Shown: in pieces, positions 13,754-54,736 of the stretch
Numbering within the stretch: the first letter of the stretch is position 1
Layout: each line of letters begins with the position of its first letter
From: an uncultured Elusimicrobia bacterium
GTDB lineage: Bacteria; Elusimicrobiota; Elusimicrobia; 2-02-FULL-39-32
NCBI GenBank assembly: GCA_964523525.1
Contig: CAZFYO010000003.1
Span: forward strand, 92,911 to 156,910
Direction of reading: 5' to 3'
Length of the DNA: 64,000 bases
Translations under genes and position numbers: made by a program
The notes under the pieces: model-generated
The model's database searches: none
What the model was told of the DNA's origin: nothing
Seen by the model: only the letters and a program-made list of their open reading frames with translations

Positions 13754-13757
13754 CCGC

Positions 13758-14492
13758 ATGTGGGAATGGTTTTGCGGCCGGCAGATCGTCCAGGAAGTTC
13801 TCGAAGCCGGCTGTTCCGTTAAAAAACTGCTGGTCGCGACGGACGCTTCCGGCGATACCCTCCAGGAAATTTCACAGATTGCCGCTGCCCGCCACATCAA
13901 CATTGAACGCGTTCCCAAAAGAGTCATTGAGGGTCTGGTTCGCGCAAACCATCAGGGCGTTGCCGTGCAAGCGGCGCTTCCCGGCCCGATGGACTTCAAA
14001 AATTTTCTCGACACGCTTCCCCTGGACAAGCAGACGTTCATCGGCGTTTTGGATGAAGTGCAGGACCCGCAAAACGTCGGCGCGATTCTGCGCAGCGCGG
14101 CGGCGTTCGGCTGCAAAGGCGTCGTCATCTCCAAGTGGCGCCAGGCCGGCATGAGCCAGGCCGTGATGCGCGCTTCCAGCGGCGCCGCCATGAAAGTCCC
14201 GCTGGCCGAGATCGCCAACATCGGAGTGGCCATCGAACGATTGAAGGAAAAAGGGTTTTGGATTTATGGCGCATCAGTGGAAGACGGTCATAAACTCGAG
14301 AATGCCAAAATCCGGTTTCCGATGGCCATCGTGCTGGGCAACGAACACCGCGGCATCAAGCCGATTTTGAAAAACAACTGCGACGAGCTCCTCTCCATTT
14401 CGCAAACCGACGACATACAGTCGCTCAACGTTTCCTGCGCCGCTTCCATCTTTTTTCATGAGATTCACATGCAGGCGCTCAAGGCATCATAA
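13758..14492 (+). CDS. rlmB: SpoU/TrmH-family RNA 2'-O-methyltransferase (RlmB-like)
   Basis: SPOUT methyltransferase motifs (VLDEVQDPQNVGAILRSAAAFG…AIVLGNEHRGI); conserved position after cysS. The track ORF starts upstream, inside cysS; trimmed to the ATG at 13758. Confidence 0.75.
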   Translation: MWEWFCGRQIVQEVLEAGCSVKKLLVATDASGDTLQEISQIAAARHINIERVPKRVIEGLVRANHQGVAVQAALPGPMDFKNFLDTLPLDKQTFIGVLDEVQDPQNVGAILRSAAAFGCKGVVISKWRQAGMSQAVMRASSGAAMKVPLAEIANIGVAIERLKEKGFWIYGASVEDGHKLENAKIRFPMAIVLGNEHRGIKPILKNNCDELLSISQTDDIQSLNVSCAASIFFHEIHMQALKAS

Positions 14493-14501
14493 AAGGGTGA
14501 T

Positions 14502-15233
14502 ATGACCGATAACGTTTCCATTTGGACGTCGTTCGTAGCGGGGGTCGCTTCATTTCTGTCACCCTGCGTCCTGCCGCTGGTTCCGGGCTACATTTCCTAC
14601 GTGTCGGGCCTGTCGCTGGACGAGCTTTCGAACAGCCAGGACCAGGGCGCCACGATGCGCAAAACGCTGGGCGGCGCGGCGCTCTTCGTTATCGGCTTTT
14701 CCATTGTCTTCACAGCGCTTGGCGCCTCCGCCAGCGCGGTCGGACGCATCCTGCTGGGCAATCTGCCCATCATCAACAAAATTGCGGGCGCTCTCATTGT
14801 GATTTTTGGCCTTCACACGATGGGCGTCATTCGCATCCCTTTCCTCTACTACGAGAAGCGCTTTCACACGAGCGGCCAGGCGGTGCGCTGGTTCAGCCCG
14901 CTGGTCATGGGCTTTGCGTTCGCTTTCGGCTGGACGCCCTGCATCGGCCCGATCCTGGCCGGAATTCTGGCGCTCGCCGCGACGCAGGAAACCGTTTTTC
15001 AGGGCACGCTGCTGCTTTTTATCTATTCGATGGGGCTGGGCATTCCCTTTCTGCTCACCGCGCTTGGCGTGCAATATTTCATGCGGTTTTTCGCGAAGTA
15101 TAAAAAATTCATCCGCTGGGGCGAGATTTTCGCCGGCATCCTGCTGGTATTTGTCGGCGTGCTGATTTTCACGAACAAGCTGACGGTTTTGATCAAGTTC
15201 CTGCCGGACTCGCTGTCGAAGTTCGCTATTTAA
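14502..15233 (+). CDS. ccdA: Cytochrome c-type biogenesis / thiol-disulfide transporter CcdA (DsbD-like membrane domain)
   Basis: Polytopic membrane protein with the two conserved Cys motifs of the CcdA/DsbD family (SPCVLPLVPGY and WTPCIGPILAGIL). Confidence 0.75.
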   Translation: MTDNVSIWTSFVAGVASFLSPCVLPLVPGYISYVSGLSLDELSNSQDQGATMRKTLGGAALFVIGFSIVFTALGASASAVGRILLGNLPIINKIAGALIVIFGLHTMGVIRIPFLYYEKRFHTSGQAVRWFSPLVMGFAFAFGWTPCIGPILAGILALAATQETVFQGTLLLFIYSMGLGIPFLLTALGVQYFMRFFAKYKKFIRWGEIFAGILLVFVGVLIFTNKLTVLIKFLPDSLSKFAI

Positions 15234-21898: not shown

Positions 21899-23367
21899 TG
21901 AGCATGGACCAGCGTCCGGTACTGGTGTTCGGCGGGTCGGGATACATCGGCTCGCGGCTGGTCTTGAGCCTCCTGCAACGGCGCTTTCTCGTGCGCGCCA
22001 CTTCCCGCGACATGGCGCGTCTGCGCAAGCGGCCCTGGTCGGCCTATCCCGGGCTGCAGCGCGTCGAAGCCGACGTTTTCGACGACGATTCTCTAAAGAA
22101 AGCCTGCGAAGGCGCCGTCGTGGCCTTCTACTTCGCGCAATGTTCCGACCGCGGATACTGGAATTTTCCCAAACTGAACCGGCAGGCGGCGGAACGTTTT
22201 CTTAAAGCCGCCGAGGATGCCGGCGTCGAACGGATCATTTATCTTGGCGGTCTGGGCGAATCGGAGAGCGTTTCAAGCCGCCTGCTCAAATCCCGCCTGG
22301 AAGTCGAACAGATCCTAAAGTCGGGCAAAATCCCCGTCACGGTTTTTCGCGCCGGGCTCATCCTGGGCTCCGGCAACCTCGCGTTTGAAATCCTTCGGCA
22401 CCTGACGGACCGATGGCCGCTGTTCGCCGATACCGGCTGGATGAAAACCGACTGCCAGCCGGTTTCGGTGCGCGACGTGGTCGAATGCCTGGCGCGTTCC
22501 CTGGAAACTCCGGGCGCGGTCGGCCAGAGTTTCGACGTGGGCGGCAAGGAAGTCCTTCCCTACGAGCGGTTCCTGCAGATATACGCGGAAGAAGCGGGTC
22601 TGCGCCGTCGCGCCATCCTTCCGTTCCGCTTTCTCGGATCGTGGTTGGGCGCCCGCTGGATCGATTTCGGCACGCCTTTGAATGGCAGCCAGGCGCTTCC
22701 GGTTCTGGAATCGATGAAGGAACGCGCGCTCTGCCGCGACACCAAAATCAACGACGTGATTCCCTTTGAATACGCGGGTCCGCGCGACGCGATCAAGACG
22801 ATCCTCTACGAAACCGTCGAGATTCTCGAACGCACCCTGGCCGCGGACGCCCTGCCTCTGGAATGGAGCATGAAAGGCGATCCCGAGGGGTCGGGCGGGA
22901 CCGTGTTCCGCTTCGCGGATTCCTCCGTGATCGCGGCCCTGCCCGAAGACGCCTGGCGCGTTCTGTCGCGCATGGGTGGGCGGACGGGCTGGTATCACGC
23001 AGACTGGTTCTGGACGCTGAGGGGATTTATGGACCGACTTTTGGGCGGGAAAGGAATGACGCCCGGGCGCAAGAGCGATATTCAGTTGAAAACCGGCGAG
23101 CCGATGGACTGCTGGCGGATCCAAATCGCAGAACCGCTGCGCCGGTTGTTGCTGCTTTCGGAGCTGAAAATGCCGGGCCGCTGTTACTGGGATTTCCGGA
23201 TCGAGGCCGTCGATTCCGAGAAAGTACGGCTGTCCCAGGAAATGATCTTCATTCCGCGAGGCCTGCCGGGTTTCATCTTCTGGCATGCGTTCAAGAAAGT
23301 TCGCCGCCATGTATTCGACGGCGCGGCTGTGGCGATTGCCAAACGCGTCAGCCTGAAAATTATTTAA
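21898..23367 (+). CDS. NAD(P)H-binding (NmrA/SDR-a-like) protein fused to a DUF2867-like C-terminal domain
   Basis: Rossmann motif (VLVFGGSGYIGSRL) at the N-terminus. Track ORF extends upstream to 21610 through the AKR gene; the real start is taken as the ATG overlapping the AKR stop. Confidence 0.7.
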   Translation: MSMDQRPVLVFGGSGYIGSRLVLSLLQRRFLVRATSRDMARLRKRPWSAYPGLQRVEADVFDDDSLKKACEGAVVAFYFAQCSDRGYWNFPKLNRQAAERFLKAAEDAGVERIIYLGGLGESESVSSRLLKSRLEVEQILKSGKIPVTVFRAGLILGSGNLAFEILRHLTDRWPLFADTGWMKTDCQPVSVRDVVECLARSLETPGAVGQSFDVGGKEVLPYERFLQIYAEEAGLRRRAILPFRFLGSWLGARWIDFGTPLNGSQALPVLESMKERALCRDTKINDVIPFEYAGPRDAIKTILYETVEILERTLAADALPLEWSMKGDPEGSGGTVFRFADSSVIAALPEDAWRVLSRMGGRTGWYHADWFWTLRGFMDRLLGGKGMTPGRKSDIQLKTGEPMDCWRIQIAEPLRRLLLLSELKMPGRCYWDFRIEAVDSEKVRLSQEMIFIPRGLPGFIFWHAFKKVRRHVFDGAAVAIAKRVSLKII

Positions 23368-24572
23368 GCTCCGTATTCGTTCAGCTCTTCCCTGACAAAC
23401 TTCTTCACGAAACCAATCAGTCCCGTTGCTTCTTCTCCGGCGATGCCTTCCTTCAGGGTGTAAAACCGAAGCTCATCCTTGCGGCGGTCATAAGCGGAAA
23501 TCAATACGGGTTCCTTCACGCAGATGGCTCCAGACGGCCGGTCCATGAGCGGAACCATCAGGAGCGGGATGCCCATTCCGCATATCCGCCGGATCAGGAC
23601 GTGCATGAAACGAACCCGATAGGGCGTCCCGAGCGCCAGTTCTTCGGCGAATTCCGAGAGCAGGCGCTCCGCCGATTCCCGAGAAACACCCACCTCTGCC
23701 ATCAGTTCTTTGAGCTTTCCGGCCTGAACGGATGCCAGCCTGCCCTGCACTGCGGCGGAAAAATCATCATCGTGCAGTATCGCTTCAACCCGGGCTTCGC
23801 ATTCCCGTTTGGACAGGGATTTCAGCGATTCGAAATAGATCCGCTGCGCGAACTCGCGGAATACATACAGGATGCGGGTATTGTGGATGACCCCGCCGCC
23901 CACCGCCGCGCAGACCGGGTTCCCGCTCTTTAATCCGCGCAGTATGTTGAAGATTGCTTCCCGGACGTGCGCTTTGCGGAAGAACAGGTTCTGCGCCCAG
24001 GTCCCGCTGCCGGGCATCCGGTCCACCGCGATGAAACCCGAGTGCACCAATCCCGCATAGAGTCCTCCGAGCCAGCCGGGGAGAGTGTCCAGGGCGAAGG
24101 GATCGATGGCCTGCATGACCATCAGGTATTTATTGGGAAAACATTGGCCCGAGGTTTGGACCGTATGGTAGATCAGGTCTCCAAGCCTGTACGCTTCCTC
24201 GTTGGAAGTTTCGGGGTGGGAGGTGATAAAAAAAACTGCGGGTTCCTTTTTGAGCGAGTCACGGGCGCGGCGGCTGAGCGCGGAGACCTTTTCGATATTT
24301 ACCCGGCTGGCAGCGTCCAGCGCCGGGGGCGTCCGTTTGGATTTCAGATGGGTAAAGTGCGCGGTGAGCGCGTTTGCGAAACGGGCGGGAGCCATCCGCA
24401 GGCAGACCATGCCGATGGCGTAGCCGGCCGCGTTGAAAAGGATCTGGAGGGCTTTTTGGGAACGGCTTAAGGCGAAGGGTTTTTTACCGTAGAGTTTGCG
24501 GTCGAGCGTAATGGCGAGCGCCATGCGGCGCGCCTGGTGCTGGTTCCCGCCTTGAACCGAGCGGGCATCCAT
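23364..24572 (-). CDS. Hypothetical protein (402 aa)
   Basis: Long ORF convergent with the previous gene; no recognisable motif from inspection. Coding call rests on length and co-linear frame only. Confidence 0.5.
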   Translation of the reverse strand: MDARSVQGGNQHQARRMALAITLDRKLYGKKPFALSRSQKALQILFNAAGYAIGMVCLRMAPARFANALTAHFTHLKSKRTPPALDAASRVNIEKVSALSRRARDSLKKEPAVFFITSHPETSNEEAYRLGDLIYHTVQTSGQCFPNKYLMVMQAIDPFALDTLPGWLGGLYAGLVHSGFIAVDRMPGSGTWAQNLFFRKAHVREAIFNILRGLKSGNPVCAAVGGGVIHNTRILYVFREFAQRIYFESLKSLSKRECEARVEAILHDDDFSAAVQGRLASVQAGKLKELMAEVGVSRESAERLLSEFAEELALGTPYRVRFMHVLIRRICGMGIPLLMVPLMDRPSGAICVKEPVLISAYDRRKDELRFYTLKEGIAGEEATGLIGFVKKFVREELNEYGA

Positions 24573-24582
24573 GGGGGCCGGA

Positions 24583-25605
24583 TTACCGGTGAACGCCTTC
24601 GATGCGGACGGGCAGAATGTACTTCACGTCGCCGCTTCGCACGAACTTTTCCCAGACGCGCAGAATATCGCCGTCCCACCAGCCTTTTTTAACCTCGTCG
24701 TACATGACGTTGAACGCCCGGTCCATGTCCCAGGCTTCCTTATAGGAGCGGCGGGTGGTGAGGGCGTCGTAAATATCGACGACATTGATGATGCGGACCA
24801 GGACCGAAATCTCGTCCTTTTTGAGGCCGTCGGGATAGCCGGAGCCGTTGAGCTTTTCGTGGTGATGGCGGATGAGGGGGATGGCGTCCTTGGCGGAACG
24901 TAACCGTTCGCAAATCGTGCAGCCCATCACGGGATGGCTCTTCATGATGTCGAATTCATCCTTGGTGAGCGGTCCCGGTTTCATCAAAATGCTGTCGGGG
25001 ATCGCCATCTTGCCGATGTCGTGGAGCACGCCGCCGCGGTCGAGGGTGTCGAGCTCCGCCGGGGTACGGTTCAAAAGCTTGCCGAGCGCGACCGCAAAGC
25101 GCGAAACGCGGTCCGCGTGGCCGAGCGTGTAGGAATCCTTGGCTTCGATGACTCGGGCGAGAGTGAAAATGATGGACTCGGCGTCGTCCAGCTGGTCGTT
25201 GAGCGCTTTGACGCGCAGCAGCGAACGGATGCGCGTGAGCAGCTCCACCGGGCGGTAGGGTTTCGTGATGTAATCGTCCACGCCGGCTTCGAGCCCCTCG
25301 AGCTTCGCGCCCAGTTCGCTTAAGGCGGTCAGCATGATGATGGGGACGAAACGCGTCGCCCGGTGAGACTTCAGCTGGCGCGCGACTTCATAGCCGTTTT
25401 CGCCGGGCATATCGACGTCGAGCAAAACGAGGTCGGGATATTCCTTGATGGCTGTTTCAATCGCGTCAATGCCGTTCGAGGCGATAAACGAATGGTAGCC
25501 GTTATCGATCAGCAGCTGCTGAAGGACTTCAGCGTCGGGGCGGCTGTCGTCCGCGATCAGGATCTTTTTCTGGCGGTGCGGGGATTTATCGTCCAGCGGG
25601 AACAT
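24583..25605 (-). CDS. Response regulator with HD-GYP output domain (putative c-di-GMP phosphodiesterase)
   Basis: N-terminal receiver (ILIADD…LVLLDVDMP…KP) plus HD-GYP motifs (HD…HHEKLNGSGYPDGL). Confidence 0.8.
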   Translation of the reverse strand: MFPLDDKSPHRQKKILIADDSRPDAEVLQQLLIDNGYHSFIASNGIDAIETAIKEYPDLVLLDVDMPGENGYEVARQLKSHRATRFVPIIMLTALSELGAKLEGLEAGVDDYITKPYRPVELLTRIRSLLRVKALNDQLDDAESIIFTLARVIEAKDSYTLGHADRVSRFAVALGKLLNRTPAELDTLDRGGVLHDIGKMAIPDSILMKPGPLTKDEFDIMKSHPVMGCTICERLRSAKDAIPLIRHHHEKLNGSGYPDGLKKDEISVLVRIINVVDIYDALTTRRSYKEAWDMDRAFNVMYDEVKKGWWDGDILRVWEKFVRSGDVKYILPVRIEGVHR

Positions 25606-26482
25606 GTTCCGCTCCTTTCGCGAGTAAAACGGTATTTTTGAGCAGCATGGCGATGGTCATGGGGCCGACGCCGCCGGGCACGGGGGTGATCCAGCTGGTT
25701 TTATCTTTTACGGCTTCGAAGTCCACGTCGCCGCAGATTTTTCCGTCCGGCAAACGGTTAATGCCGACGTCCATCACGGCCGCGCCGCTCTTCACCATGC
25801 CGGCGGTAATAAATTTGGGTTTGCCGATGGCCGCTACCAGAACGTCAGCCTGGGCGCAGATTTCCGGCAGGTTTTTCGTCTGGGAATGAACGATGGTCAC
25901 CGTGGCGTGTTTCGACAGCAGCAGCGCCGCCATGGGTTTTCCGACAATCATGGAACGTCCGACCACGACCGCGTTCTTGCCGGCCAGCTGGACGCCGCAG
26001 CGATCCAGCATCTCCATGACCCCGAGCGGCGTGCAGGGAACGGGGAGGGGGCGCTTCGAACCCACGATCTCCTTAAAATCTTTCGCGGCAAAAAGTCTTC
26101 CCAGATTGTAGGGATGAAATCCATCCGCGTCTTTTTCGGGGCGCATGATCTTCAAAACTTCGTCGGGGTCCACCTGCGGCGGCATGGGAAGCTGGACGAG
26201 GATCCCGTGCACTTTGGGGTCGCCGTTCAGCTCTTCTACCTTTCGGAGCACATCCTTTTGCGATGATTCCTTTGGCATCACGTGGTTGAAGGACGTCATG
26301 CCCGCGTCCTGGCAGGCCTTGTGCTTGTTGCGGACGTAAATTTCGGAGGCGGCGTTGTCGCCGACCAGGAGCGTGGCGAGGCCTGGCGTGACACCATTTT
26401 TTTTGAGAGCGTCCACCTCGCGCCGCAGTTCGGCGCGGATGTCGGCCGCGATCTGTTTTCCGTCAATCAATTGGAAGCTCAT
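25586..26482 (-). CDS. folD: Bifunctional methylenetetrahydrofolate dehydrogenase / methenyl-THF cyclohydrolase
   Basis: FolD motifs (…LVGDNAASEIYVRNKHKAC…GILVQLPMP…DADGFHPYNLGRL…GKNAVVVGRSMIVGKPMA). Confidence 0.9.
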   Translation of the reverse strand: MSFQLIDGKQIAADIRAELRREVDALKKNGVTPGLATLLVGDNAASEIYVRNKHKACQDAGMTSFNHVMPKESSQKDVLRKVEELNGDPKVHGILVQLPMPPQVDPDEVLKIMRPEKDADGFHPYNLGRLFAAKDFKEIVGSKRPLPVPCTPLGVMEMLDRCGVQLAGKNAVVVGRSMIVGKPMAALLLSKHATVTIVHSQTKNLPEICAQADVLVAAIGKPKFITAGMVKSGAAVMDVGINRLPDGKICGDVDFEAVKDKTSWITPVPGGVGPMTIAMLLKNTVLLAKGAEHVPAGR

Positions 26483-26504
26483 TAAAATCCTTTATGGGCT
26501 TCGC

Positions 26505-28211
26505 CTATTTCGAGCCGTCATAAAGAGGCGGCGGCAGAATGGGCGGGCGCTGTTTGTCTTCGCGCAGGCGCTGGAGTTCCACTTCGCGCACCAGCGTGTA
26601 GGGCGCGACGGTCGAAACGGGGATGGTGCCGGACTCGGCGACGCAGAACGCGTTGCTCACTTCCTGATCTTCCCCGGCCGCGATGATCTTGTTGATGGTG
26701 ATGAGGGGGGTTCCGACCAGCTCGACGCCGCGGACCAGCGTTTCTATGCCGGTTTCGGCGTCCACCTGGTACACTTCCTCCGGCGTCCCGCGGAACGCCT
26801 GGTAGCGCCCGCGCGTCGTCGAGGTATCGCCCGACCGCGTTTTGCGGATCAGGAGACCGAAGGGTTTATTCTGCCGTTTGCATTCTTCCATGAGCATTTT
26901 TTTAAGAGTTGAAAGGGGAAATGATTTTTCTGATTTTACAAAAAGATTCGACATCCTTCCAATTGGGTCCCTCCCGAACTGGGCGCGGCCGTGGCCGTTG
27001 GATTTCGAATAGCCCGCGATGGGCCGGCGGGAAAGCAGATAGTTCCGCAGGACGCCCTTTTCGATCAGCAAAACTTTCCGGGCCGGCACCGCTTCTTCGT
27101 CGTACCGGTAGTAGCCGTTCAGATCTTTTCCTTTCCATGCCGCGAGCGTGGGGTCGTCTTCCACCGTCAGGAACTCGGGGATAATGACCTTTCCGACCTG
27201 TCCCTTGAAGGTCTGGCCCTCGTCATCATCCCTCTGGCGCTCCCCTTCAAGCCGGTGGCCGATCGCCTCGTGAAACAGCACTCCGGTGGACTCCGGGTCG
27301 AGGATCGCGGGCGAGGTGTAGGGGTCGGCGGTCTTCGCCTGCCGGAGTTTCAGCAGTTGCGCGGACATTTCTTCGCGCGTCCTGGAAAGCTCGGCTTCGT
27401 CCGGCAGCCTGGGGACCGACAGGATCGAAAACGTTCGCGACACGTCGAGCGTCATGCCGTCGGACGCCTGTGTCGTGGCCCACAGGTAGATGAAGAACGG
27501 GTTGCCCGGCGCGCGGGTGACCAGCTCCGTGCCTTCCGAGTTTACGGTATAGTGATTTTTCATCACCCGGCGGAGCATGACGCCGCTGTTTTGAATTTCG
27601 CGGTACTTCTTAAAACCTTCCGAAACTTTTTTGATCGTCTGGCGATAGGAGTCCAGCTGGGGAACGTCGAGCGAAGGCGCGTCCTTTTCCTTCACCGGCT
27701 TTTCCACGGAAAAATCATCCAGCTTTTCCTTTTCGATTTCGGCGACGCGCTTGCCCTGCTTCTGCAGGTAGTCCTTGATCGCCTGCTTGTACGACTGGTC
27801 GGAAAGCAGCCAGAGCTGGTGGCGGATCGCGTCGGAATCGTCTTCGAGCACGGTCCCTTCATAGGCGCCGCGCGACCCTTCGTGGGAGTTGTCGAGCGAG
27901 CGCGACCCGTAGCGCACGTCCACGTAAAGATAACGGTTGCGGAGAGTCTGGTCCTGCGTCAGCGCCCCGTACCGCGCCGTGATCGTGGTATCCATGGAAT
28001 CCATCAGCTGATGCGACGCGTAATAGGGCGTCGAAAAATTTTCGAACGAGAGTTTTTTCATGGTGCGGCGCAGTTCCTGCCGGAGCGGCGCCAGGATTTT
28101 TTCATGGCTGGCCGCGGGATGGGCCCGTGCGGCCGTTGCGTTCAATGCCAGCGCGAAGACCGGCCATAAAATCAGTTGAAAAGCGCCGAACAGGGGGCGT
28201 GCGAATTTCAT
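26505..28211 (-). CDS. TldD/PmbA-family metallopeptidase, secreted form
   Basis: N-terminal signal peptide; HExxxH motif (HEAIGHRLEG) in the expected position; 568 aa. Confidence 0.7.
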   Translation of the reverse strand: MKFARPLFGAFQLILWPVFALALNATAARAHPAASHEKILAPLRQELRRTMKKLSFENFSTPYYASHQLMDSMDTTITARYGALTQDQTLRNRYLYVDVRYGSRSLDNSHEGSRGAYEGTVLEDDSDAIRHQLWLLSDQSYKQAIKDYLQKQGKRVAEIEKEKLDDFSVEKPVKEKDAPSLDVPQLDSYRQTIKKVSEGFKKYREIQNSGVMLRRVMKNHYTVNSEGTELVTRAPGNPFFIYLWATTQASDGMTLDVSRTFSILSVPRLPDEAELSRTREEMSAQLLKLRQAKTADPYTSPAILDPESTGVLFHEAIGHRLEGERQRDDDEGQTFKGQVGKVIIPEFLTVEDDPTLAAWKGKDLNGYYRYDEEAVPARKVLLIEKGVLRNYLLSRRPIAGYSKSNGHGRAQFGRDPIGRMSNLFVKSEKSFPLSTLKKMLMEECKRQNKPFGLLIRKTRSGDTSTTRGRYQAFRGTPEEVYQVDAETGIETLVRGVELVGTPLITINKIIAAGEDQEVSNAFCVAESGTIPVSTVAPYTLVREVELQRLREDKQRPPILPPPLYDGSK

Positions 28212-29090
28212 TTAGTCGAGCAGCTTCATTTTTTTCAGATTTTCGACGATCTTTTTGGTCGAGGTGGATCGGTTCAGCGTGTAAAAATGGATCCCGGGCG
28301 CGCCCTGCTCCAGGAGCTGGGCGCATTGCCGCGTGGCGAATTCGATGCCGTATTTTTGCACGGCTTCCAGGTTGTCCTTGATGGGTTCGAGATCTCTCCG
28401 CACTTCGGGAGGCACCTTGGCGCCGCACATCTCGGTGAACCGCACCAGCTGCCCGAAATTCGTGATGGGCATGATGCCGGGGATGATGGGCGCCGTGACG
28501 CCCTTGGCGCGCATGCGGCCTTCAAAAGCCGTGAAGTCGCGGTTATCAAAGAAAAGCTGGGTGATGATGACGTCGCCGCCCGCGCGGATTTTGGACTGAA
28601 GGTGCGTCCAGTCGGTCTCGCGGTTGGACGATTCGACGTGGCCCTCGGGATAACCCGCGACCGCGACGCAGAAAGAGTATCCGGCCTTAATGAATTCCAC
28701 CAGTTCGCTCGCGTGGGAGAACCCGTCCGGGTGCGGCGTGAACTTCGTCTCGCCTTTGGGGGGATCGCCTCGCAGAGCGATCACGTTTTCGATGCCGGCG
28801 CTTTTGATCTGGTCCAGAATGCCGCGCAGCTCCTCGCGCGAATGGCCGACGCAGGTGAGGTGCGCCATGCTTTCGATGCCAAGCTCCTTCTTGATCTTGC
28901 GAACGATCTCGATGGTCTTCTGACGCGTGCTGCCGCCCGCCCCGTACGTCACGGAAACGAACCCGGGGCCGAGGACTTTGATCTCGCGCGCCGTGGCATA
29001 GAGCTGGTCCATCGCCTCGTCGGTCTTGGGCGGGAAAAACTCGCAGGAGAACACGCGCTTTTTGCCCTTCAGGATGTCGGATATCTTCAT
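28212..29090 (-). CDS. metF: 5,10-methylenetetrahydrofolate reductase
   Basis: MetF signature (FSCEFFPPKT…VSVTYGAGGSTR…HLTCVG…IALRGDPP); adjacent folD suggests a one-carbon cluster. Confidence 0.85.
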   Translation of the reverse strand: MKISDILKGKKRVFSCEFFPPKTDEAMDQLYATAREIKVLGPGFVSVTYGAGGSTRQKTIEIVRKIKKELGIESMAHLTCVGHSREELRGILDQIKSAGIENVIALRGDPPKGETKFTPHPDGFSHASELVEFIKAGYSFCVAVAGYPEGHVESSNRETDWTHLQSKIRAGGDVIITQLFFDNRDFTAFEGRMRAKGVTAPIIPGIMPITNFGQLVRFTEMCGAKVPPEVRRDLEPIKDNLEAVQKYGIEFATRQCAQLLEQGAPGIHFYTLNRSTSTKKIVENLKKMKLLD

Positions 29091-29971
29091 CGCGCGGTTA
29101 AAAACCGGGCCTTGCCGGCCATTTTGAATGTCGCTTCATGAATTTCGGAAAGAGAGGGGACGACTTCTCCGTCCGCCATGATCCAGACCGGCAGATCGCT
29201 CCTTAAAATCATTTCGGAAGCCTTTGATTTCCAGACCGCGGTATCGTGATGGCGCCGCATCATGGCGAAACCGCGCACGCCCAGCAGAAGTTTGGTCAAC
29301 AGGCGGAATTTGCTGATGCTCTTCACGCCGAAAAACTCCAGGTAACCGTCCGATGGGTCGGAATCGTTGGAAAAATGCAATCCATTGGAAAAATATGGAG
29401 CGTTGACGGCGAGCAGCATCAGAAAGGAATCGTCGTGGCGGTGGTTGCCCCAGCGGAGCGACGCGGGCACGGGTTTCAGCGCGCGCAGCGTGCCGAGCAG
29501 TCCGCGCTTTTTTTGCGTCGGATGGCGCCGTCCGAATCCCGCGTTGTTGATAAAGTAGTGCTCGTTCACTTTGGCGACCGCCATTTCCCGGACATGGTGC
29601 TTGTGGATGATGTCTCCCGCGATCTGCAGGTTGCGCCGCAGGGTCCGGCCTTTCCGGAACCCGAGTATCTTAGCAAAATCGTTGCAGGTGCCCAGCGGAA
29701 GCAGGCCCAGCGTATAGCGCGCGAGGGCATTTTTGCGCGCCAGGTAGTTGATCACCCGGTTCAACGTTCCGTCGCCCGCCCCGATGATCAACGTATCGAA
29801 CCCGCCCTGTTCGATCGCGGCCATGTGGCCTTCCAGCGACTGCGGCTGGTCCCGATCCACCGCGAAAAATTCCGACGGGACCGGGATCCGGGCTTGAATG
29901 AGGGATATGAGTTTCGGGAGGGGCGTTCGTTTCCAGCGTTGCGACGGATTCAGTAAGAACGCGGCCTTCAC
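29087..29971 (-). CDS. Diacylglycerol-kinase-catalytic-domain lipid kinase (YegS/BmrU-like)
   Basis: DAGK_cat motifs (LIIGAGDGTLNRV…LPLGTCNDFA). Confidence 0.7.
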   Translation of the reverse strand: MKAAFLLNPSQRWKRTPLPKLISLIQARIPVPSEFFAVDRDQPQSLEGHMAAIEQGGFDTLIIGAGDGTLNRVINYLARKNALARYTLGLLPLGTCNDFAKILGFRKGRTLRRNLQIAGDIIHKHHVREMAVAKVNEHYFINNAGFGRRHPTQKKRGLLGTLRALKPVPASLRWGNHRHDDSFLMLLAVNAPYFSNGLHFSNDSDPSDGYLEFFGVKSISKFRLLTKLLLGVRGFAMMRRHHDTAVWKSKASEMILRSDLPVWIMADGEVVPSLSEIHEATFKMAGKARFLTAR

Positions 29972-30384
29972 TACTCACCCATGACTTTGACGATGACCCG
30001 CTTCTTGCGCTGCCCGTCAAACTCCGCGTAAAAAATCTGCTGCCAGGGCCCGAAATCCAGCTTGCCGCCCGTGATGGGCGCGATGATCTGGTGGTGGACC
30101 AGCATGGACTTCAAATGGGTGTCGCCGTTGGTCTCGCCGGTGCGGTGATGGCGGTAATTGAGGCCGGACGGAGCCAGCTTCTCCAGCCACTCGTCGATAT
30201 CCTCGAGCAGGCCGGATTCGTCGTCATTCACCCAGACGCCCGCCGTGATATGCATGGCGCTGACCAGCACCATCCCTTCCTTGATCTTGGATTTCGCCAG
30301 GATCTCTTCGACCTGAGGCGTAATATTGATGTACTCGCGGATTTTTTTGGTGTTGAACCAGAGGTACTCCGTGTGCGACTTCAT
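29971..30384 (-). CDS. yjbQ: YjbQ-family protein (UPF0047; secondary thiamine-phosphate synthase-like)
   Basis: Characteristic YjbQ length and motifs (…[31 protein letters not shown]…[20 protein letters not shown]). Confidence 0.8.
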
Positions 30385-30393
30385 TGTGGGCTA

Positions 30394-30891
30394 TTAGCGA
30401 TAGTTGGTGAACTGCAGATCGAGCCCGAAATCCTGCGGCCGCAGGAAATTCATGACGGCCTGGAGCTCGTCCTTGCTTTTGGAAACGATGCGGAGCTGAT
30501 CGCCCTGAATGGAGGGCGTGACTTTCATCTTCGCATCCTTAATAAGCCGCACGATCTCCTTGGCTTTCTCGGAGGGGATGCCCTGCTTCAGCTTCACGAG
30601 CTGGCGCACCGTGGCTTTCTCGGCCGTCTCGATGGCCTGGTAGTCGAGCGCCTTGAGCGAAACGTTCCGCTTGATAAATTTGTTCTGAACGATATCAATG
30701 ACGCTCTTCAGTTTTCCTTCATCGTCGGAAAAAAGCGTGATGGAGGGGGCCTTCTTGTCGAAGTCGACGCGCGAGACCGAGCCGCGGAAATCGAAGCGGG
30801 TCGTCATTTCCTTGTTCATCTGGTTAACGGCATTTTCCACTTCCTGCAAATCGAGTTTGGATACAACGTCAAATGAGAATTCATCCGCCAT
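30394..30891 (-). CDS. yajQ: YajQ-family nucleotide-binding protein (UPF0234; reported cyclic-di-GMP effector family)
   Basis: YajQ family similarity across 165 aa (MADEFSFDVVSKLDLQEVENAVNQ…). Confidence 0.8.
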   Translation of the reverse strand: MADEFSFDVVSKLDLQEVENAVNQMNKEMTTRFDFRGSVSRVDFDKKAPSITLFSDDEGKLKSVIDIVQNKFIKRNVSLKALDYQAIETAEKATVRQLVKLKQGIPSEKAKEIVRLIKDAKMKVTPSIQGDQLRIVSKSKDELQAVMNFLRPQDFGLDLQFTNYR

Positions 30892-30909: not shown

Positions 30910-31767
30910 TTATGTGTGGATCCGCGCGGCGCGCGTGACGAAGGTCTTTCCCCGCGGTTCGACCATCAGCAGATGGCCGTTGGGGACGTCGCGCCAGGCT
31001 CGGGCTCCTGACCGGTCCATCGGCTCGGAAGCGAACGCGACGGCGCCTTTTGACTTATTGTAACACATTTGGAAGTAGGGCCTTTTCGGCCAGCAGAAGG
31101 AACGGGCCTTGGATGGAAAATAGCTGCATTGCGCCGCCAGCATCTTTCCATCCGTGACAATGACGTTCAATCCCTCCGCAAAACTCCGGTACTTCCGCCT
31201 GGACTTGGGAATAGAGTCCCATACCTTTTTCATTTGTCTCCGCGCTTCAATAAAGATGCGCGGCCAATCCGTCTTGACGCCCTTTTTAGCGTGTTCTTCC
31301 CAAATTTTGACGATCAGCAGGAACAAAACCTCGCTGTCGTTGTTGCCGGTGCGGTATTTTTTGAAACGTCCCAGAGTTTTGGCGACTTCATTCGGTATGT
31401 TCAGCGTCCCATTATGGATAAAGGTCAGGTTTTTATATCGAAAGGGCTGGGTGTGCTTGCGCCCGATCAGTTTGCGATGGGGAAGCTTGTCGGGATTGGA
31501 GGCATAGCGGATATGGGCGAGGATCGCGACTGGTTTTATATCCGCCACCTGCTTTTTGAAGAGGGCCTTTTCCCTAAAGACGGGTTTGCAGGACTTGAAC
31601 GTCCGCCAATCAGCTTCACTGCCTTCCTTATATGTGATGCCCCAACCATCCTTTTGCCGCGATTTGGGGTTCCAATCGCTTTGCTTCAGAAGGGAGAAGG
31701 GCGCGTCGAGCAGGTAACGGGATGGATTGCGCGGCGCGACGGAAATCTGGGCGAAAAGCCGGCACAT
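30910..31767 (-). CDS. Class II (Ntn-type) glutamine amidotransferase-like protein (YafJ-like)
   Basis: Cys at position 2 (MCRLFA…), typical of Ntn amidotransferases; 285 aa. Confidence 0.6.
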   Translation of the reverse strand: MCRLFAQISVAPRNPSRYLLDAPFSLLKQSDWNPKSRQKDGWGITYKEGSEADWRTFKSCKPVFREKALFKKQVADIKPVAILAHIRYASNPDKLPHRKLIGRKHTQPFRYKNLTFIHNGTLNIPNEVAKTLGRFKKYRTGNNDSEVLFLLIVKIWEEHAKKGVKTDWPRIFIEARRQMKKVWDSIPKSRRKYRSFAEGLNVIVTDGKMLAAQCSYFPSKARSFCWPKRPYFQMCYNKSKGAVAFASEPMDRSGARAWRDVPNGHLLMVEPRGKTFVTRAARIHT

Positions 31768-31826: not shown

Positions 31827-32228
31827 ATGACCAGCCCCAACACCAAGACTATTCTGATCGTAGATGACGACGAGTTCATCTGCCTCTTCATCAAAACCAT
31901 CCTTGAAAAAGACGGTTTCAACGTTGCCATCGCCTATAACGGCGAAGAGGCGCTGAAAACCATCGAAACCGCAAGCGTTGACCTGATTTTGCTCGACTGG
32001 ATGATGCCGGTCCTGAGCGGCTTCGACGTTCTTAAAAATTTACAGAACAACCAGGATAAAAGCAGGATCCCCGTGATGGTGGTGACGGCCAGCGTGACGG
32101 ACTCCGACACGGTTTCCTTTATTCGCAAGCAGATGAACGTCGTCGAGTTCATGCCCAAACCCATCGAACACGTCTACCTTTTGCAGCGCGTCCACGAAAC
32201 CTTGAAAACCCAGCCGGAGAAGGCCTGA
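31827..32228 (+). CDS. Stand-alone response-regulator receiver domain protein (CheY-like)
   Basis: Receiver motifs (ILIVDDDEF, LILLDWMMP, conserved Lys in MPKPI); first gene of a four-gene overlapping operon. Confidence 0.75.
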   Translation: MTSPNTKTILIVDDDEFICLFIKTILEKDGFNVAIAYNGEEALKTIETASVDLILLDWMMPVLSGFDVLKNLQNNQDKSRIPVMVVTASVTDSDTVSFIRKQMNVVEFMPKPIEHVYLLQRVHETLKTQPEKA

Positions 32229-32698
32229 TGGCCCTCAAAGATTCGCGCTGGGTGAAGAACGCCCTTTGGATCGCAAGTACCATTGCCATTCTTTACGGGA
32301 TGGTTTATGTTGATGTGATCCTGCGAGCGCGTGAATCCTACATGGAAGGCGAGAAGTATTGGCGCTGGAGCGAGCATCCGGAAGAAAAGTCGGCCGCCTT
32401 GGAGCAGGAGTTTAACAAGGAAAAGGCCGGGCTGGATGAAAAGCTGGCCAAAAACAAATTGACGAAAGACGAGTACGACCGCCGGCTGGAGATCGCGCAG
32501 TTTGACCGCGACCGCAGCCTGGACGAATCGTCCATCAAATACGCCTACGTCTGGTACAAGACCGCTTACGAGCTATTTTCTCCGCCCGAATCCAAATGGG
32601 TCCGGCTGTCCCGCGAAAAAGCCCCTCTCGCCAAGGAAAAGTGGCGCGAGGAACTGCGAGCCAGGAAAATTCCCTTCGAAGAATACATGTTGGATTAG
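32228..32698 (+). CDS. Hypothetical membrane-anchored protein
   Basis: ATG overlaps the preceding stop (ATGA-type coupling); one N-terminal TM helix then a charged coiled-coil-like region. Confidence 0.5.
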   Translation: MALKDSRWVKNALWIASTIAILYGMVYVDVILRARESYMEGEKYWRWSEHPEEKSAALEQEFNKEKAGLDEKLAKNKLTKDEYDRRLEIAQFDRDRSLDESSIKYAYVWYKTAYELFSPPESKWVRLSREKAPLAKEKWREELRARKIPFEEYMLD

Positions 32699-32701
32699 CG
32701 T

Positions 32702-34456
32702 TTGCGCGGACGCGCCGTTCTTCCGATTATTATCCTCCTTCCTCTCCTCTTACTCGCCGCAGCCGTCCGAATCCCGTACATTTACTATTGGGACGTTTTC
32801 TATAACGCCGATTACGCGTTGATGAACCTCGTGGGTTTGCACGCCATGCGGGGCGAGTTTTCCTTCTATCTTTGGGGTCAGAACTACCATGCGGCGGTCG
32901 AGCCCCTTTTGATGGCGCCGCTCTTCAGGATTTTCTCGCCCACGCCGATGGTGGCCGCCGTGATCCCCGCCGTTTTCTCGCTGCTCTTCCTGTTTTTGTA
33001 TCACCGCTATTTGACTCGCGTGACCGATACCTGGACCGCCGGGATTGCGACTCTGATTCTTTGCGTTCCCGCGCCCTTTTTTCTGTCCATCGCGTCGCGC
33101 AACGGAAATTACATCGAGATCTTGTGCCTGGGGATGATTCAGTTCCTGCTTTTTCAAAAGATCATGGAGGGCGACCGGCGTAAATCGCTTTTGCTTCTTT
33201 TCGGTCTGGCGGCGGGCTTTTCCTGGTTTTATCTGCGCCTCATCCTGATATTCTGGGCCGCGATGTTCCTGCATTGGCTTTCCCGGACGCTGGAGCCGCG
33301 CGACTATGACCGCGCCCGCCGGTTCGTAACGTCGCTTTCGCCTTCCATTTTCTGGAACCGCCTGATCTTGCTGCGGGGAGTGGAAGTTCATCCCTGGCTG
33401 CGCATCCCGCTTGCGGTACTCAACATCTATAACCTCGGGAATTTCCTGCTGTCTGCGATTCTCTGGTTTCACGGACCTTACATCCGGATGATCGGGTCCA
33501 CCAAACTGAGCCTGGATTTCTGGCCGCTGCTGGAATCTTCGATTAAGATGACGGTCGCGGCGCTTTTCCTCGTCCATTGGCGCGCACTGCTCGACCGGGC
33601 CAAGGCGGCCTGGCGCGATCCCGTGCTCCGGATGCTTCCCATTGGATTTTTGATCGGCTATTCACCGGCGATCATCGGGATGTTTTTCGGCGAGTTTCCC
33701 GATTCGCGGAACGGGATCGCGAATGCGGCGGAGCTGATCCGCAACTTCAAGCTGGTCGGGGCGTCGCTCCTGCCGATGTTCGCCGGGGAGGGAACGATCT
33801 TGCCGCTCCGGCTGTTCGCCGTCGCCGCGTCGGGGCTGGCGCTGCTGTATTTTTTCCGCGAATTCTTTTCGTCCCTATCCGGCGTGATGGCGCTCGACCA
33901 GAAAACTCCCGACTATTTTCCTCTGCTCTGCCTGGGCGCGGTCACCTTTTTGCTGGGCATCAGCTATGACCGGCTCATCGATCCGTCGACTCTGCGCTAC
34001 TTTTTTCCGCTCTTTTTGTGTCTCCCGGTCGGCCTCGCCTGGATTTTGAAGCGCTTTCAACCGCTGCTGCGCTGGGGAATCTACGGTCTGCTGGCCCTAT
34101 TTCTAGCGAACAGTGTCGATGCGAACATGGAAGCGCTCCGCCGCCATGAAGATCCGCTCCCGCAGCAGGTTCTGGCGGACCGGCTGATCGAGCAGGGCGT
34201 GACGGGAGGTTATTCCAACTACTGGCTGGCCTATTATGTGACGTTCATCAGCCAGGAGAAGCTCATTTTGGTTTCAACGGAGGATCAGGATCGGTACGTG
34301 CCGCATTTGGAGTTTGTGCGAGGGTTGGAGCGTCCGGTATTTGTGGGGGAACCGCATCCGGGTTCCGGAACCGAAGTTACGATTAAAGGGACGCATTATC
34401 GTGTGACCCATTCTGAAACCATCGCCGGGACAGCGGTCGCTTATCTTGAGAAATGA
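32702..34456 (+). CDS. Large polytopic membrane protein (possible GT-C-like glycosyltransferase; function uncertain)
   Basis: 584 aa with more than ten hydrophobic helices and a large periplasmic-like C-terminal domain; the glycosyltransferase call is an architecture-based guess only. Confidence 0.6.
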   Translation: MRGRAVLPIIILLPLLLLAAAVRIPYIYYWDVFYNADYALMNLVGLHAMRGEFSFYLWGQNYHAAVEPLLMAPLFRIFSPTPMVAAVIPAVFSLLFLFLYHRYLTRVTDTWTAGIATLILCVPAPFFLSIASRNGNYIEILCLGMIQFLLFQKIMEGDRRKSLLLLFGLAAGFSWFYLRLILIFWAAMFLHWLSRTLEPRDYDRARRFVTSLSPSIFWNRLILLRGVEVHPWLRIPLAVLNIYNLGNFLLSAILWFHGPYIRMIGSTKLSLDFWPLLESSIKMTVAALFLVHWRALLDRAKAAWRDPVLRMLPIGFLIGYSPAIIGMFFGEFPDSRNGIANAAELIRNFKLVGASLLPMFAGEGTILPLRLFAVAASGLALLYFFREFFSSLSGVMALDQKTPDYFPLLCLGAVTFLLGISYDRLIDPSTLRYFFPLFLCLPVGLAWILKRFQPLLRWGIYGLLALFLANSVDANMEALRRHEDPLPQQVLADRLIEQGVTGGYSNYWLAYYVTFISQEKLILVSTEDQDRYVPHLEFVRGLERPVFVGEPHPGSGTEVTIKGTHYRVTHSETIAGTAVAYLEK

Positions 34457-38580: not shown

Positions 38581-41226
38581 TCAGATTTTCTCGAACGCGT
38601 TCTTCCCGATCCACCCGCGCACGCCGGCTTTGGGGATGCCGATCTCGGTCCATTCCGCGTCGTCGCGCTCGTTTAAAATCAGGACGCGGCGGCCTTCTGG
38701 AACGGTGAAGCCGACGCGGAACCTCTGGCCGGGGCCGGAGCGCACTTCCGCGCTTTGCTGGGTGATCACGGCTTCGGTTTGAACCTGTTCGCGGTAAACC
38801 CGCCCGATCCACCAGGCGCCGATCATTATGAAAAACGCCAGCGCCAGAAAAGCCCTGGCGCGGAAGAGCGAGTTTCCGGAAAATAAAATCAAAGTCCAGT
38901 AGATGCAAAGTCCCCAGAATGACATGAGATAGAGGATCGAAAGCTGGTTCAAATTGAGGATGTGAGCCGCGCGATAAAGCATGCGAGTCAAAAACGATTC
39001 CGGCTCGAAGGTTTCGCCAGTTTGAACGCCGACGAGCTGGAGATTGCTTTTTAGATCGGCGTCTGCCGGCTTCATGCGCCGCGCTCTTAACCAATGGGCG
39101 ATGGCCTTTCCGTTCATCCCCAATTTCTGATAGGTGTTGCCCAAATTGTATTCGACGGCAAAGTTTGGTCCGGTTTCCATCGCAAGCGATTCGTAAAGCG
39201 CCCGGGCATTTTCGAATTGGCCGGATTGATAATAATTGTTAGCTTCTTTGAAGGCATCGGCGGGGCTTTGCGCAGAGTTTTGTGATTGCGCGATTGTTGC
39301 ACCTGCTGCAATCAGCAACGGGATGAAAAACGGAAGCAGTATTGCCGCAAGCCGGTTAGATTTTTTCTTATCGCCTCCCTTCGCGACGGACTTCATGCTT
39401 TTTCGCAGTTCGGAGTCGATTTCTTCGATCAAATTTCGCGCTTCGCCCAGCAAACGGTCCGCGTCCTGTGTGCGGAATTGGGCTGGCGCGTAGCTGGCGA
39501 GCTCAAATTCGCTCCAGATTTTCTGCAGGCGCGATTTAAGCGTGGCCGCGGTTCCCGGGATTGCTGCGTGAGCTTCCAGAAACGCCGCAACGCTTTTTGA
39601 AGAGAGCGATGTTTCGCGCGACAGCATTTTATCGGCAAAATAGTCCTGAAACGCCTGGAAAATCCGGCCCGTTGCGTCTGCATCCTGCGTCCGGATCGAC
39701 TTAACCGCCGCATTCCATTTCCCGAGCGCCCCGCTCGCGCGTCTCCGCTCCGGATCCCGCGCGATCCAGGCCAATCTCACCCGGCGCCCGATGCCCGCCA
39801 GCAGTCCGAGCGCCGGCAGGAGGTGCAGAATTAAAAACAGCGGCGTTTTGTTCAGCCATCGGAAAGGTTTCAGCTCGCCTTCCTGCTTGATGTAGCTGAT
39901 CTCGCGGCTGACATTGGCGATCTGCGGCGCCATCGATCCGGGCCCGATCGCAAAGGTCTGCGATTTGCCCGGCGCCACTTCAATGGACAGCGCCTGCGTG
40001 GTCAGCGTCTTGTAGGATTTTCCGGGCAGATTAAAATAGCTGAATTTAATCGGCGCGATGTTGTGCGTGCCCGAAGTCTGCGGCACGAGCACGATCTTGT
40101 AAACCTTTGATCCCTCAACAAACCCCTTGGACTTCTCGATGTTCAGAGAACTCGCGGTATCGTATTTGCGGAAGCCGTCGAACTCGGGGAAAACAGGATC
40201 GCCCAAAGCCTTGATGTTGCCCTTGCCGCTGATCGTGAGCGTCAGGGTCAAGGGTTCGCCGACGGACGCTTTGCGTTTGTCGGCCATGATCGCAACGTTG
40301 AATTCGCCGACGCCGCCCGAAAATCCGTCCGGCTTTCCGGAGGGAAGGGGAACCGCGGTTAATTTGGCGGGATCGGACTTCAGCATATACTCCCGCGCGC
40401 CGCCGCCGAAAAACTGCTGGAAAATATCTTCCTGCGATCCGCTGAAATCCTGCACCGCGATTTTCAGCTGCGCGGGAGAAAGCGTTAAAGCGCCGTCGCG
40501 CGCGGGAAAAAGCGCGGTTTTGATTTCGGTGACATTATAAGGAACGCCGCCCACGCTTTCCGTAAAATTGCGCGGCGGCGGAAGGTCTTCGGTCAAAAAC
40601 CCGGAAGTGTCGGGCGGCTGGTAGTTTGGATTTGCGACCATGCGAACGCGGTAATAAAAACGGAACGCCATCGTGACCTGCTCATTGACGTACGCTTTCG
40701 GTTTGTCCAGGGATAGTTTCACGAACGCTCCAGGCGCCTGGCGGTTTCCCTGCGCGGCATTCCCCTGCGCTCCACCGGCTGCGGGAGCGGGCGCAGCCTG
40801 ACCCGCGGGCACGACTTCGATCGCGATGGGTTGAGACTGGGCCGTTTTGCCGTCCAACGTCGCGCTGAAAGGCCCGATCGTGAATTTGCCCAGGCTCTTC
40901 GGGGAAAGCATATAGGTGAAGTTCACTGACGAAGACATTTTTCCGTTTACGAATGACACATTTTGCGCCTGTCCGGAGGGGTAGACGGAAAATGCGGAAA
41001 GGTCGGGCATCTGCGGCTGGGGCATGCTCGCCGCGTCTCCCGCGATGGTCACGAGCAGCCGGACGGAATCGTTCAGAGCGACCTGCGTCTTGTCGGCGCT
41101 CGCCGATACCGTGAGATCCGCGGAAGCGCGCGCGGTCAGCGCGCAGGCGAGCAGAGCGGATGCGCAGGCCGCGCTAAAAATTTTTCCGAATGCGCGTTGG
41201 TTCAATTTACCAGTCTTCGTCATCAT
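38581..41226 (-). CDS. BatD-like oxygen-tolerance family protein fused to TPR and a C-terminal SH3-like domain
   Basis: 881 aa: signal peptide, BatD-like repeated beta-rich region, TM helix, TPR-like segment (ANNYYQSGQFENARALYESLA…), further TM helices and a C-terminal SH3b-like tail; last gene of the MoxR-DUF58-VWA operon. Confidence 0.7.
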   Translation of the reverse strand: MMTKTGKLNQRAFGKIFSAACASALLACALTARASADLTVSASADKTQVALNDSVRLLVTIAGDAASMPQPQMPDLSAFSVYPSGQAQNVSFVNGKMSSSVNFTYMLSPKSLGKFTIGPFSATLDGKTAQSQPIAIEVVPAGQAAPAPAAGGAQGNAAQGNRQAPGAFVKLSLDKPKAYVNEQVTMAFRFYYRVRMVANPNYQPPDTSGFLTEDLPPPRNFTESVGGVPYNVTEIKTALFPARDGALTLSPAQLKIAVQDFSGSQEDIFQQFFGGGAREYMLKSDPAKLTAVPLPSGKPDGFSGGVGEFNVAIMADKRKASVGEPLTLTLTISGKGNIKALGDPVFPEFDGFRKYDTASSLNIEKSKGFVEGSKVYKIVLVPQTSGTHNIAPIKFSYFNLPGKSYKTLTTQALSIEVAPGKSQTFAIGPGSMAPQIANVSREISYIKQEGELKPFRWLNKTPLFLILHLLPALGLLAGIGRRVRLAWIARDPERRRASGALGKWNAAVKSIRTQDADATGRIFQAFQDYFADKMLSRETSLSSKSVAAFLEAHAAIPGTAATLKSRLQKIWSEFELASYAPAQFRTQDADRLLGEARNLIEEIDSELRKSMKSVAKGGDKKKSNRLAAILLPFFIPLLIAAGATIAQSQNSAQSPADAFKEANNYYQSGQFENARALYESLAMETGPNFAVEYNLGNTYQKLGMNGKAIAHWLRARRMKPADADLKSNLQLVGVQTGETFEPESFLTRMLYRAAHILNLNQLSILYLMSFWGLCIYWTLILFSGNSLFRARAFLALAFFIMIGAWWIGRVYREQVQTEAVITQQSAEVRSGPGQRFRVGFTVPEGRRVLILNERDDAEWTEIGIPKAGVRGWIGKNAFEKI

Positions 41227-42868: not shown

Positions 42869-42869
42869 G

Positions 42870-44766: not shown

Positions 44767-44768
44767 GG

Positions 44769-45671: not shown

Positions 45672-45696
45672 GGCGGCTTCGCGCGGGCCCGAAAGG

Positions 45697-51184: not shown

Positions 51185-51231
51185 AAAAGAGAAAGGCCTG
51201 ATCGCTAACGCGATTACGGCCTTTCTCTTTT
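51185..51231. terminator. Bidirectional intrinsic-terminator-like hairpin between the NmrA-like gene and aceK
   Basis: 14-bp stem (AAAAGAGAAAGGCC / GGCCTTTCTCTTTT) with inner ATCGC/GCGAT stem; U-rich 3' flank on both strands; the aceK stop codon lies in the loop. Confidence 0.5.
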
Positions 51232-52974: not shown

Positions 52975-53062
52975 GCTATTTCTTATCAGGAATGGCCCGT
53001 TTAATCAAGAGGCAGAAACGAGCCGAAAAAGGCGTGGCAAGTGCGTTGCGTCTCGATGTCCG

Positions 53063-53102: not shown

Positions 53103-53130
53103 TTAACTTCATTAGAGTTAGAGAGCCATT

Positions 53131-54732: not shown

Positions 54733-54736
54733 CTCC

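Follow-up and report, generated by a model that had tools for sequence, protein, structure and literature searches.

The 64-kb stretch of DNA analysed here, referred to as the window, belongs to an uncultured Elusimicrobia bacterium (contig CAZFYO010000003.1) and encodes a response regulator with a receiver domain and an HD-GYP domain (24583–25605, minus strand). Its gene follows folD in a block of one-carbon and lipid housekeeping genes that also holds a gene of the YajQ family (30394–30891, minus strand), and both open reading frames (ORFs) were borne out at these positions by the ORF list and by matches in Pfam and NCBIfam. We consider it likely that the regulator is a typical phosphorylation-controlled phosphodiesterase of cyclic di-GMP (c-di-GMP), that its expression is tied to the housekeeping block and that YajQ co-occurs with it through shared gene-order ancestry. 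The ‘pair’ of HD-GYP and YajQ genes, as which the two had been put forward in the original prediction, is a matter of synteny and no demonstrated module. The regulator belongs to a well-known enzyme family and is ordinary in itself; its clade-conserved neighbourhood is unusual.

HD-GYP Response Regulator and Its Active Site

In a Pfam scan the 340-aa protein matched Response_reg, HD_5 and HD. The receiver spans residues ~15–127 (PF00072, E = 2.9e-25) and the HD-GYP phosphodiesterase domain residues ~149–313 (HD_5/HD, E = 1.7e-34). When the two halves were compared with PDB sequences by phmmer, the N-terminal half matched receivers of the PleD/PhoB type, while V-cGAP3 (5z7c, E = 3.9e-34) and PmGH (4mcw, E = 2.3e-33) were found with the C-terminal half. 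The residues involved in receiver phosphorylation are all present, namely the acidic pocket D19/D20, D63 (in DVDMP), T93 and K115 (in KPY). The activity of RpfG-family proteins depends on phosphorylation of the receiver (10.1101/2021.11.05.467447). Judged by its sequence, the window protein is a standard response regulator of the RpfG family and probably an active enzyme.

The catalytic residues, for which a check of an active against a degenerate site had been suggested, are intact and not degenerate. Alignment with PmGH (4mcw) places the seven core metal ligands at H163 (PmGH H189), H195 and D196 (H221/D222), H224 (H250), H248 and H249 (H276/H277) and D277 (D305); other active-site equivalents are E250 (E278) and Y257 (Y285). 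The sequence HHEKLNGSGYP at residues 248–258, with GYP at 256–258, fits the diagnostic HD-GYP motif HHExh[D/N]GxGYP (Galperin and Chou, 10.1101/2021.11.05.467447). The metal-ligand motifs are also kept in those HD-GYP orthologues of related Elusimicrobiota that lie in the same gene block (see section “Gene Block and Its Conservation”). At the position of PmGH E185, which binds the third metal, the window protein has Tyr159, and Tyr, His or Phe is found there across the orthologues, so that the residue of a trinuclear site is missing. Glu185 of PmGH correlates with hydrolysis through to GMP, although this correlation is not absolute (10.1101/2021.11.05.467447). Tyr159 in place of the third-metal Glu therefore assigns the window protein to the binuclear class, with pGpG as the likelier main product. 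Glu143 was considered as a third-metal ligand and rejected, since the PmGH alignment places Tyr159 at the position of this ligand.

The residues that bind c-di-GMP in PmGH have equivalents as well: K235-P-G237 corresponds to K209-P-G211 (the KPG motif at 209–211), and R314/K317 corresponds to R286/K289, which form an RxY[K/R] motif as R286-S-Y-K289. The RxY[K/R] pair largely sets c-di-GMP specificity, and RxxQ or RxxN in its place shifts the preference to cyclic GMP-AMP (cGAMP) (10.1101/2021.11.05.467447). Hydrolysis of cGAMP is known for some members of the HD-GYP group (10.1101/2021.11.05.467447), and the substrate here could be 3'3'-cGAMP or another cyclic dinucleotide instead of c-di-GMP. 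Such a substrate would agree with V-cGAP3 as the top PDB match, marginally above PmGH, and with the lack of a GGDEF gene in the window and in ~170 kb of related loci. However, the margin of V-cGAP3 over PmGH is negligible, RxY[K/R] and not RxxQ or RxxN is present in the window protein and in all orthologues, and neither a CD-NTase nor a Hypr-GGDEF gene came to light. A substrate other than c-di-GMP seems quite improbable to us.

Gene Block and Its Conservation

The regulator gene belongs to a minus-strand array of nine co-directional genes (31767 to 23364) with intergenic distances of −20 to +22 nt, as read from the ORF list with Pfam and NCBIfam assignments. From 5' to 3' the array encodes a class-II amidotransferase, YajQ/DUF520, YjbQ, a YegS-like lipid kinase, MetF, a TldD-like protein, FolD, the response regulator (REC and HD-GYP) and an orphan protein, and the successive distances are 18, 9, −1, −4, 0, 22, −20 and 10 nt. 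The original prediction had named folD, metF, a secreted TldD-like peptidase and a lipid kinase as members of this block, and each of these genes was confirmed. The genes for YjbQ (29971–30384), the amidotransferase-like protein (30910–31767) and the orphan protein (23364–24572) come in addition to those it listed.

A scan of GTDB genomes and protein searches assigned the window to metagenome-assembled genomes (MAGs) of soil and groundwater Elusimicrobiota, and the block was compared with related loci. Block proteins were compared by tblastn and ORFs or gene calls were read, on fragments of at most 21 kb of each related contig. Nine relatives (L002–L007, L027, L028 and L035), with GC contents from 38% (L035) to 66% (L027), retain lipid kinase-MetF-(TldD-like)-FolD-HD-GYP-orphan in this order, either wholly or over the part that their contigs cover. 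Single genes are missing from some of them: the TldD-like gene in L007 and L027, the YjbQ gene in L003 and L006 and the orphan gene in L003. Over these nine loci the identity to the window proteins is 67–95% for HD-GYP, 61–78% for FolD, 60–75% for MetF, 39–44% for the kinase and 31–39% for the orphan. For the HD-GYP protein the single values are 95% (L002), 82% (L003), 81% (L004), 78% (L005), 77% (L006), 80% (L007), 83% (L027), 72% (L028) and 67% (L035). It is the best-conserved block protein in eight of the nine loci (72–95%), for instance in L002 with 95% against 78% for FolD; the exception is L035, where FolD (also 67%), YajQ and YjbQ equal or surpass it. Such conservation of the regulator indicates strong purifying selection, which is unusual for a signalling protein. 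More distant HD-GYP orthologues with 66% (L031), 57% (L029) and 52% (L030) identity do not lie beside folD, and those of L029 and L030 come after a PMT_2 glycosyltransferase-like gene. We propose that a single clade of Elusimicrobiota has inherited the gene order of this block. A PMT_2 gene adjoins the HD-GYP gene or the orphan gene in L035 too.

The ATG of the HD-GYP gene is at 25605–25603 and the TAA of folD at 25588–25586; the overlap (25586–25605, minus strand) is exactly 20 nt, the length that had been read from the sequence before. The ATG at 25605 is the only canonical start codon that gives a complete receiver domain. A Shine-Dalgarno-like AAAGGAG (25618–25612, minus strand) lies within the 3' end of folD, 6 nt before this ATG. 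Among the relatives the two genes overlap by 4 nt (ATGA) in L002, L005 and L007 and by 17 nt in L006, and they are separated by a gap of 7 to ~35 nt in L003, L004, L027, L028 and L035. The junction is tight in every relative that has an HD-GYP protein of at least 67% identity and readable upstream sequence, but not in L031 (66%). Because the tight junction recurs in relatives, coupled expression with folD, as originally proposed, can reasonably be inferred. The HD-GYP gene is probably co-transcribed with folD and, in this genome, translationally coupled to it. A scan of the block for promoters and terminators gave counts not above those of shuffled sequence and was hence uninformative, and an Rfam scan for c-di-GMP, tetrahydrofolate (THF) and ZTP riboswitches found none in the 64 kb and only one tRNA.

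Adjacency of folD and the HD-GYP gene could go beyond gene order and couple c-di-GMP turnover functionally to one-carbon or membrane-lipid metabolism, for example via the lipid kinase and the orphan protein. The kinase-MetF-FolD-HD-GYP-orphan core survives from 38 to 66% GC while the YajQ, YjbQ, TldD-like and amidotransferase genes vary, and start/stop overlaps recur among the relatives. The orphan gene also trails the HD-GYP gene tightly, by a gap of a few nt or an overlap, in the window, L027 and L035, and the high conservation of the regulator in eight of nine loci would fit a role in this context. Such coupling nevertheless has no known mechanism, and neither a riboswitch nor another regulatory element was found. 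The orthologues of L029, L030 and L031 lie away from folD, L003 lacks the orphan gene, and inherited order in a slowly rearranging clade may suffice to explain the arrangement. We regard functional coupling as improbable.

YajQ Linkage and Nucleotide Binding

The 165-aa YajQ/DUF520 nucleotide-binding protein gives full-length profile matches (PF04461, E = 6e-62, 208.9 bits against a cut-off of 23.2; NF003819, 203 against 146 bits). Its gene lies five genes, ~5 kb, upstream of the HD-GYP gene. Of the seven genomes that allow an assessment, four (window, L027, L003 and L035) have YajQ at the head of the block, and it is absent from this place in L005, L006 and L028. In the MAG of L005 (JAKFYJ01) the HD-GYP block is intact and YajQ is on a separate contig (L033), where it adjoins homologues of a stand-alone receiver and a 156-aa protein, the divergent neighbours of YajQ in the window. 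In another MAG (L034) YajQ is flanked by EamA and RNase H genes, and there is no HD-GYP gene close to it. The linkage of YajQ to the block looks ancestral but broken without loss of either partner, and the claim of a cyclic-di-GMP-related pair could not be upheld as it was worded.

Two further features of the surroundings of YajQ were seen. The divergent unit of the window (31827–34456, plus strand) consists of the stand-alone receiver, the 156-aa protein, which has no Pfam match, and a PMT_2-like membrane protein; it adjoins YajQ also in L027 (3058–5430) and L033 (1021–1964), even in the MAG in which YajQ has become separated from the block of folD and the HD-GYP gene. In L034 (3096–5257 and 8001–8495) YajQ is part of a co-directional run with a canonical PilZ gene, a low-molecular-weight phosphatase gene and the serine hydroxymethyltransferase (SHMT) gene glyA, which sets it again near a one-carbon gene and also near a genuine c-di-GMP receptor.

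Published evidence on c-di-GMP binding by YajQ proteins conflicts, and binding is not family-wide. It was reported only for XC_3703, PA4395 and Smlt4090, whereas YajQ of E. coli, Clostridium and B. cereus preferred ATP/GTP (An et al., 2014, PMC4199771). The original prediction spoke of a family that includes reported c-di-GMP effectors; in this founding study binding was confined to a subgroup. Salmonella STM0435 is reported to bind c-di-GMP via R33, R137 and D138, and mutation of these residues merely weakened binding, with a Kd of 15–33 uM (2024 study, PMC10978029). R36, K140 and D141 of the window YajQ align with them, with Lys for the second Arg. Residues of the STM0435 type are conserved throughout the family, even in proteins that reportedly do not prefer c-di-GMP, and therefore do not discriminate c-di-GMP binders. 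Similarity was ruled out as a basis for placing the window protein in the c-di-GMP-binding subgroup, as it is equally similar to the three solved members HI1034 (1in0, 119 bits), STM0435 (8k4i, 112 bits) and XC_3703 (5b7w, 109 bits).

These data bear on the idea that YajQ and the HD-GYP protein form one c-di-GMP module, in which the phosphodiesterase would set the level, YajQ would sense it and one operon would co-express both. In favour of it, both genes belong to one co-directional array in which no gap exceeds 22 nt, and the block is complete from YajQ to the orphan in L027 and in L035, a distant relative with 38% GC, and partly so in L003. The three STM0435 positions also match, and the family carries the NCBIfam name ‘YajQ family cyclic di-GMP-binding protein’. 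However, five genes lie between the two, YajQ is not in the block of L005, L006 and L028 and has moved to another contig in one MAG, only some members of the family bind c-di-GMP and others preferred ATP/GTP, and the matching positions are family-wide and of limited effect when mutated. The window also holds no LysR-type partner and no GGDEF gene. It seems unlikely that the two proteins work as such a module.

Other Signalling Genes and Proposed Function

A Pfam search of ~55 ORFs and a motif scan found no GGDEF, EAL, PilZ or histidine kinase gene in the window. The sole other signalling gene is that of the stand-alone receiver (31827–32228, plus strand; PF00072, E = 1.5e-25), which is divergent from the array. 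When ~170 kb of related Elusimicrobial loci were scanned for GGDEF, EAL, PilZ and H-box motifs, no GGDEF was found; one PilZ (RRxxR...NxSxxG), confirmed by Pfam, is present in L034. The nearby cyclase, receptor or kinase of a dedicated c-di-GMP locus is thus missing from the 64 kb, and nothing relevant was found in the literature on c-di-GMP in Elusimicrobia. In L027 the block is closely followed, on its own strand, by the gene of a PAS-PAS-HisKA-HATPase histidine kinase (12602–14668); this candidate cognate kinase is absent from the window.

In the mechanism that we favour, an unlinked histidine kinase would phosphorylate Asp63 of the receiver, and the phosphorylated receiver would regulate the binuclear-metal HD-GYP domain. 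This domain would then hydrolyse c-di-GMP, probably mainly to pGpG. The HD-GYP gene is the eighth of nine and probably shares both a transcript and translational coupling with folD. The amount of regulator would then follow the one-carbon and lipid housekeeping operon, and its activity would be set post-translationally. YajQ would be a general nucleotide-binding protein with an ancestral but dispensable position at the head of the block, and not a dedicated effector partner.

Several observations weigh against this mechanism. The window encodes neither a kinase nor a cyclase, and the related loci add no GGDEF gene. The best PDB sequence match of the HD-GYP domain is a cGAMP-specific enzyme (V-cGAP3, 5z7c). 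Lastly, L035, the relative that diverges most, retains the entire block from YajQ to the HD-GYP gene, and this gives some scope to a functional link that we nevertheless discount. In a more far-reaching reading, the folD-coupled HD-GYP protein and the orphan would jointly adjust lipid or folate-dependent metabolism upon a phosphorelay signal, with YajQ possibly as a nucleotide sensor; we find this combined scheme very doubtful.

If the reading as an ordinary phosphodiesterase is true, it is chiefly of use for annotation: it shows a phosphodiesterase of the RpfG type, under high constraint and apparently active, in uncultivated Elusimicrobiota of soil and groundwater, and it warns against taking YajQ for a c-di-GMP effector on account of its family name. 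FolD and MetF evolve faster than the regulator, which keeps the same lipid kinase, one-carbon and uncharacterised acyltransferase-fold neighbours across 38–66% GC. Slow evolution and conserved neighbours together point to a possible unrecognised link of a second messenger with core metabolism or the cell envelope.

Neighbouring Genes in the Window

The first gene of the array (30910–31767, minus strand) encodes a class-II glutamine amidotransferase-like protein (PF13230, E = 2.3e-9) and has the same position in L027. YjbQ/UPF0047 (29971–30384, minus strand) matches PF01894 (E = 1.5e-37) and TIGR00149 (118.6 bits against a cut-off of 67.75). The YegS/DAGK-like lipid kinase (29087–29971, minus strand) was assigned by PF00781 and PF19279, and its scores with the NCBIfam lipid kinase models are below cut-off. 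MetF, the methylene-THF reductase (28212–29090, minus strand), matches PF02219 (E = 2.9e-102) and TIGR00676 (346.9 bits against 293.7). FolD, the methylene-THF dehydrogenase/cyclohydrolase (25586–26482, minus strand), matches PF02882 (E = 2.7e-67), PF00763 (E = 2.7e-40) and NF010783 (345.7 against 333 bits).

The TldD/PmbA-like metalloprotease (26505–28211, minus strand) matches PF19289 (E = 7e-30) and has HEAIGH at residue 314. Its N-terminus is signal peptide-like and reads MKFARPLFGAFQLILWPVFALALNATAARA. In the window the stop codon of metF abuts the ATG of the TldD-like gene in the same frame (28209–28214). In L005 (6561–9089) and L006 (5106–7013) a single stop-free ORF, of 842 aa in L005, covers MetF, a hydrophobic signal-like stretch and the TldD-like protein, and represents either a fusion or the use of a non-canonical internal start. 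In L003 the metF and TldD-like genes overlap in different frames.

The array ends with the orphan protein of 402 aa (23364–24572, minus strand), 10 nt past the HD-GYP gene. Its family is tiny, numbering 138 representatives out of 1.84 billion, and lacks a Pfam model. An acyltransferase fold of the LPLAT/AGPAT type is predicted for the protein. His119 is conserved in a [ST]HP[EDQ][TP] motif; the residue at His+5 is variable (N, S, G or P), so that the acidic residue of the catalytic HX4D/E motif is missing. Among the more distant family members Pfam recognised no domain, save in one that is fused to a SAM-dependent methyltransferase.

Further away, the window encodes a Bat/MoxR-type run (38581–46686, minus strand) of a MoxR AAA ATPase, a DUF58 protein, an unannotated 307-aa ORF, a BatA-like VWA protein, a VWA-TPR protein and a BatD-TPR protein; part of such a run also adjoins the 57%-identical HD-GYP orthologue in L029. 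A glyoxylate-shunt cluster (51214–56035) contains the isocitrate dehydrogenase kinase/phosphatase AceK on the minus strand and malate synthase and isocitrate lyase on the plus strand. A very long ORF of at least 1862 aa (58413–63998, plus strand) is cut off by the edge of the window; Pfam gave no match to it at E <= 1e-4.

Comparison with Known Systems

The orphan protein has no sequence-level match to the LPLAT/AGPAT superfamily (PlsC, GPAT, LpxM, PatA and tafazzin), and it has [ST]HP[EDQ] and not HX4D. The window YajQ is matched over its full length of ~165 aa by XC_3703 (5B7W), STM0435 (8K4I/8K5Q) and HI1034 (1IN0) and belongs to the same two-domain fold family. Its context differs from that of XC_3703, PA4395, Smlt4090, STM0435 and HI1034: no LysR partner is nearby, and it heads a YjbQ-kinase-MetF block.

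Over the HD-GYP domain the window protein is most similar in sequence to V-cGAP3 (5z7c), one of the cGAMP-specific phosphodiesterases V-cGAP1, V-cGAP2 and V-cGAP3 of V. cholerae. V-cGAP3 lacks a receiver and is built of tandem HD-GYP-like modules, whereas the window protein has a receiver and an RxYK of the c-di-GMP type. With PmGH (4MCW) and PA4781 (4R8Z) it has all seven core metal ligands, HHExhNGxGYP, KPG and RxYK in common. It is predicted to be binuclear like PA4781, in contrast to the trinuclear PmGH, which has Glu185 where the window protein has Tyr. The two-domain architecture and the phospho-acceptor set of the receiver are those of the RpfG family (Xanthomonas RpfG). The gene for RpfG adjoins that for RpfC, whereas the window gene has no linked sensor kinase and, unlike the RpfG-family relatives named here, lies at the end of a one-carbon and lipid housekeeping block.

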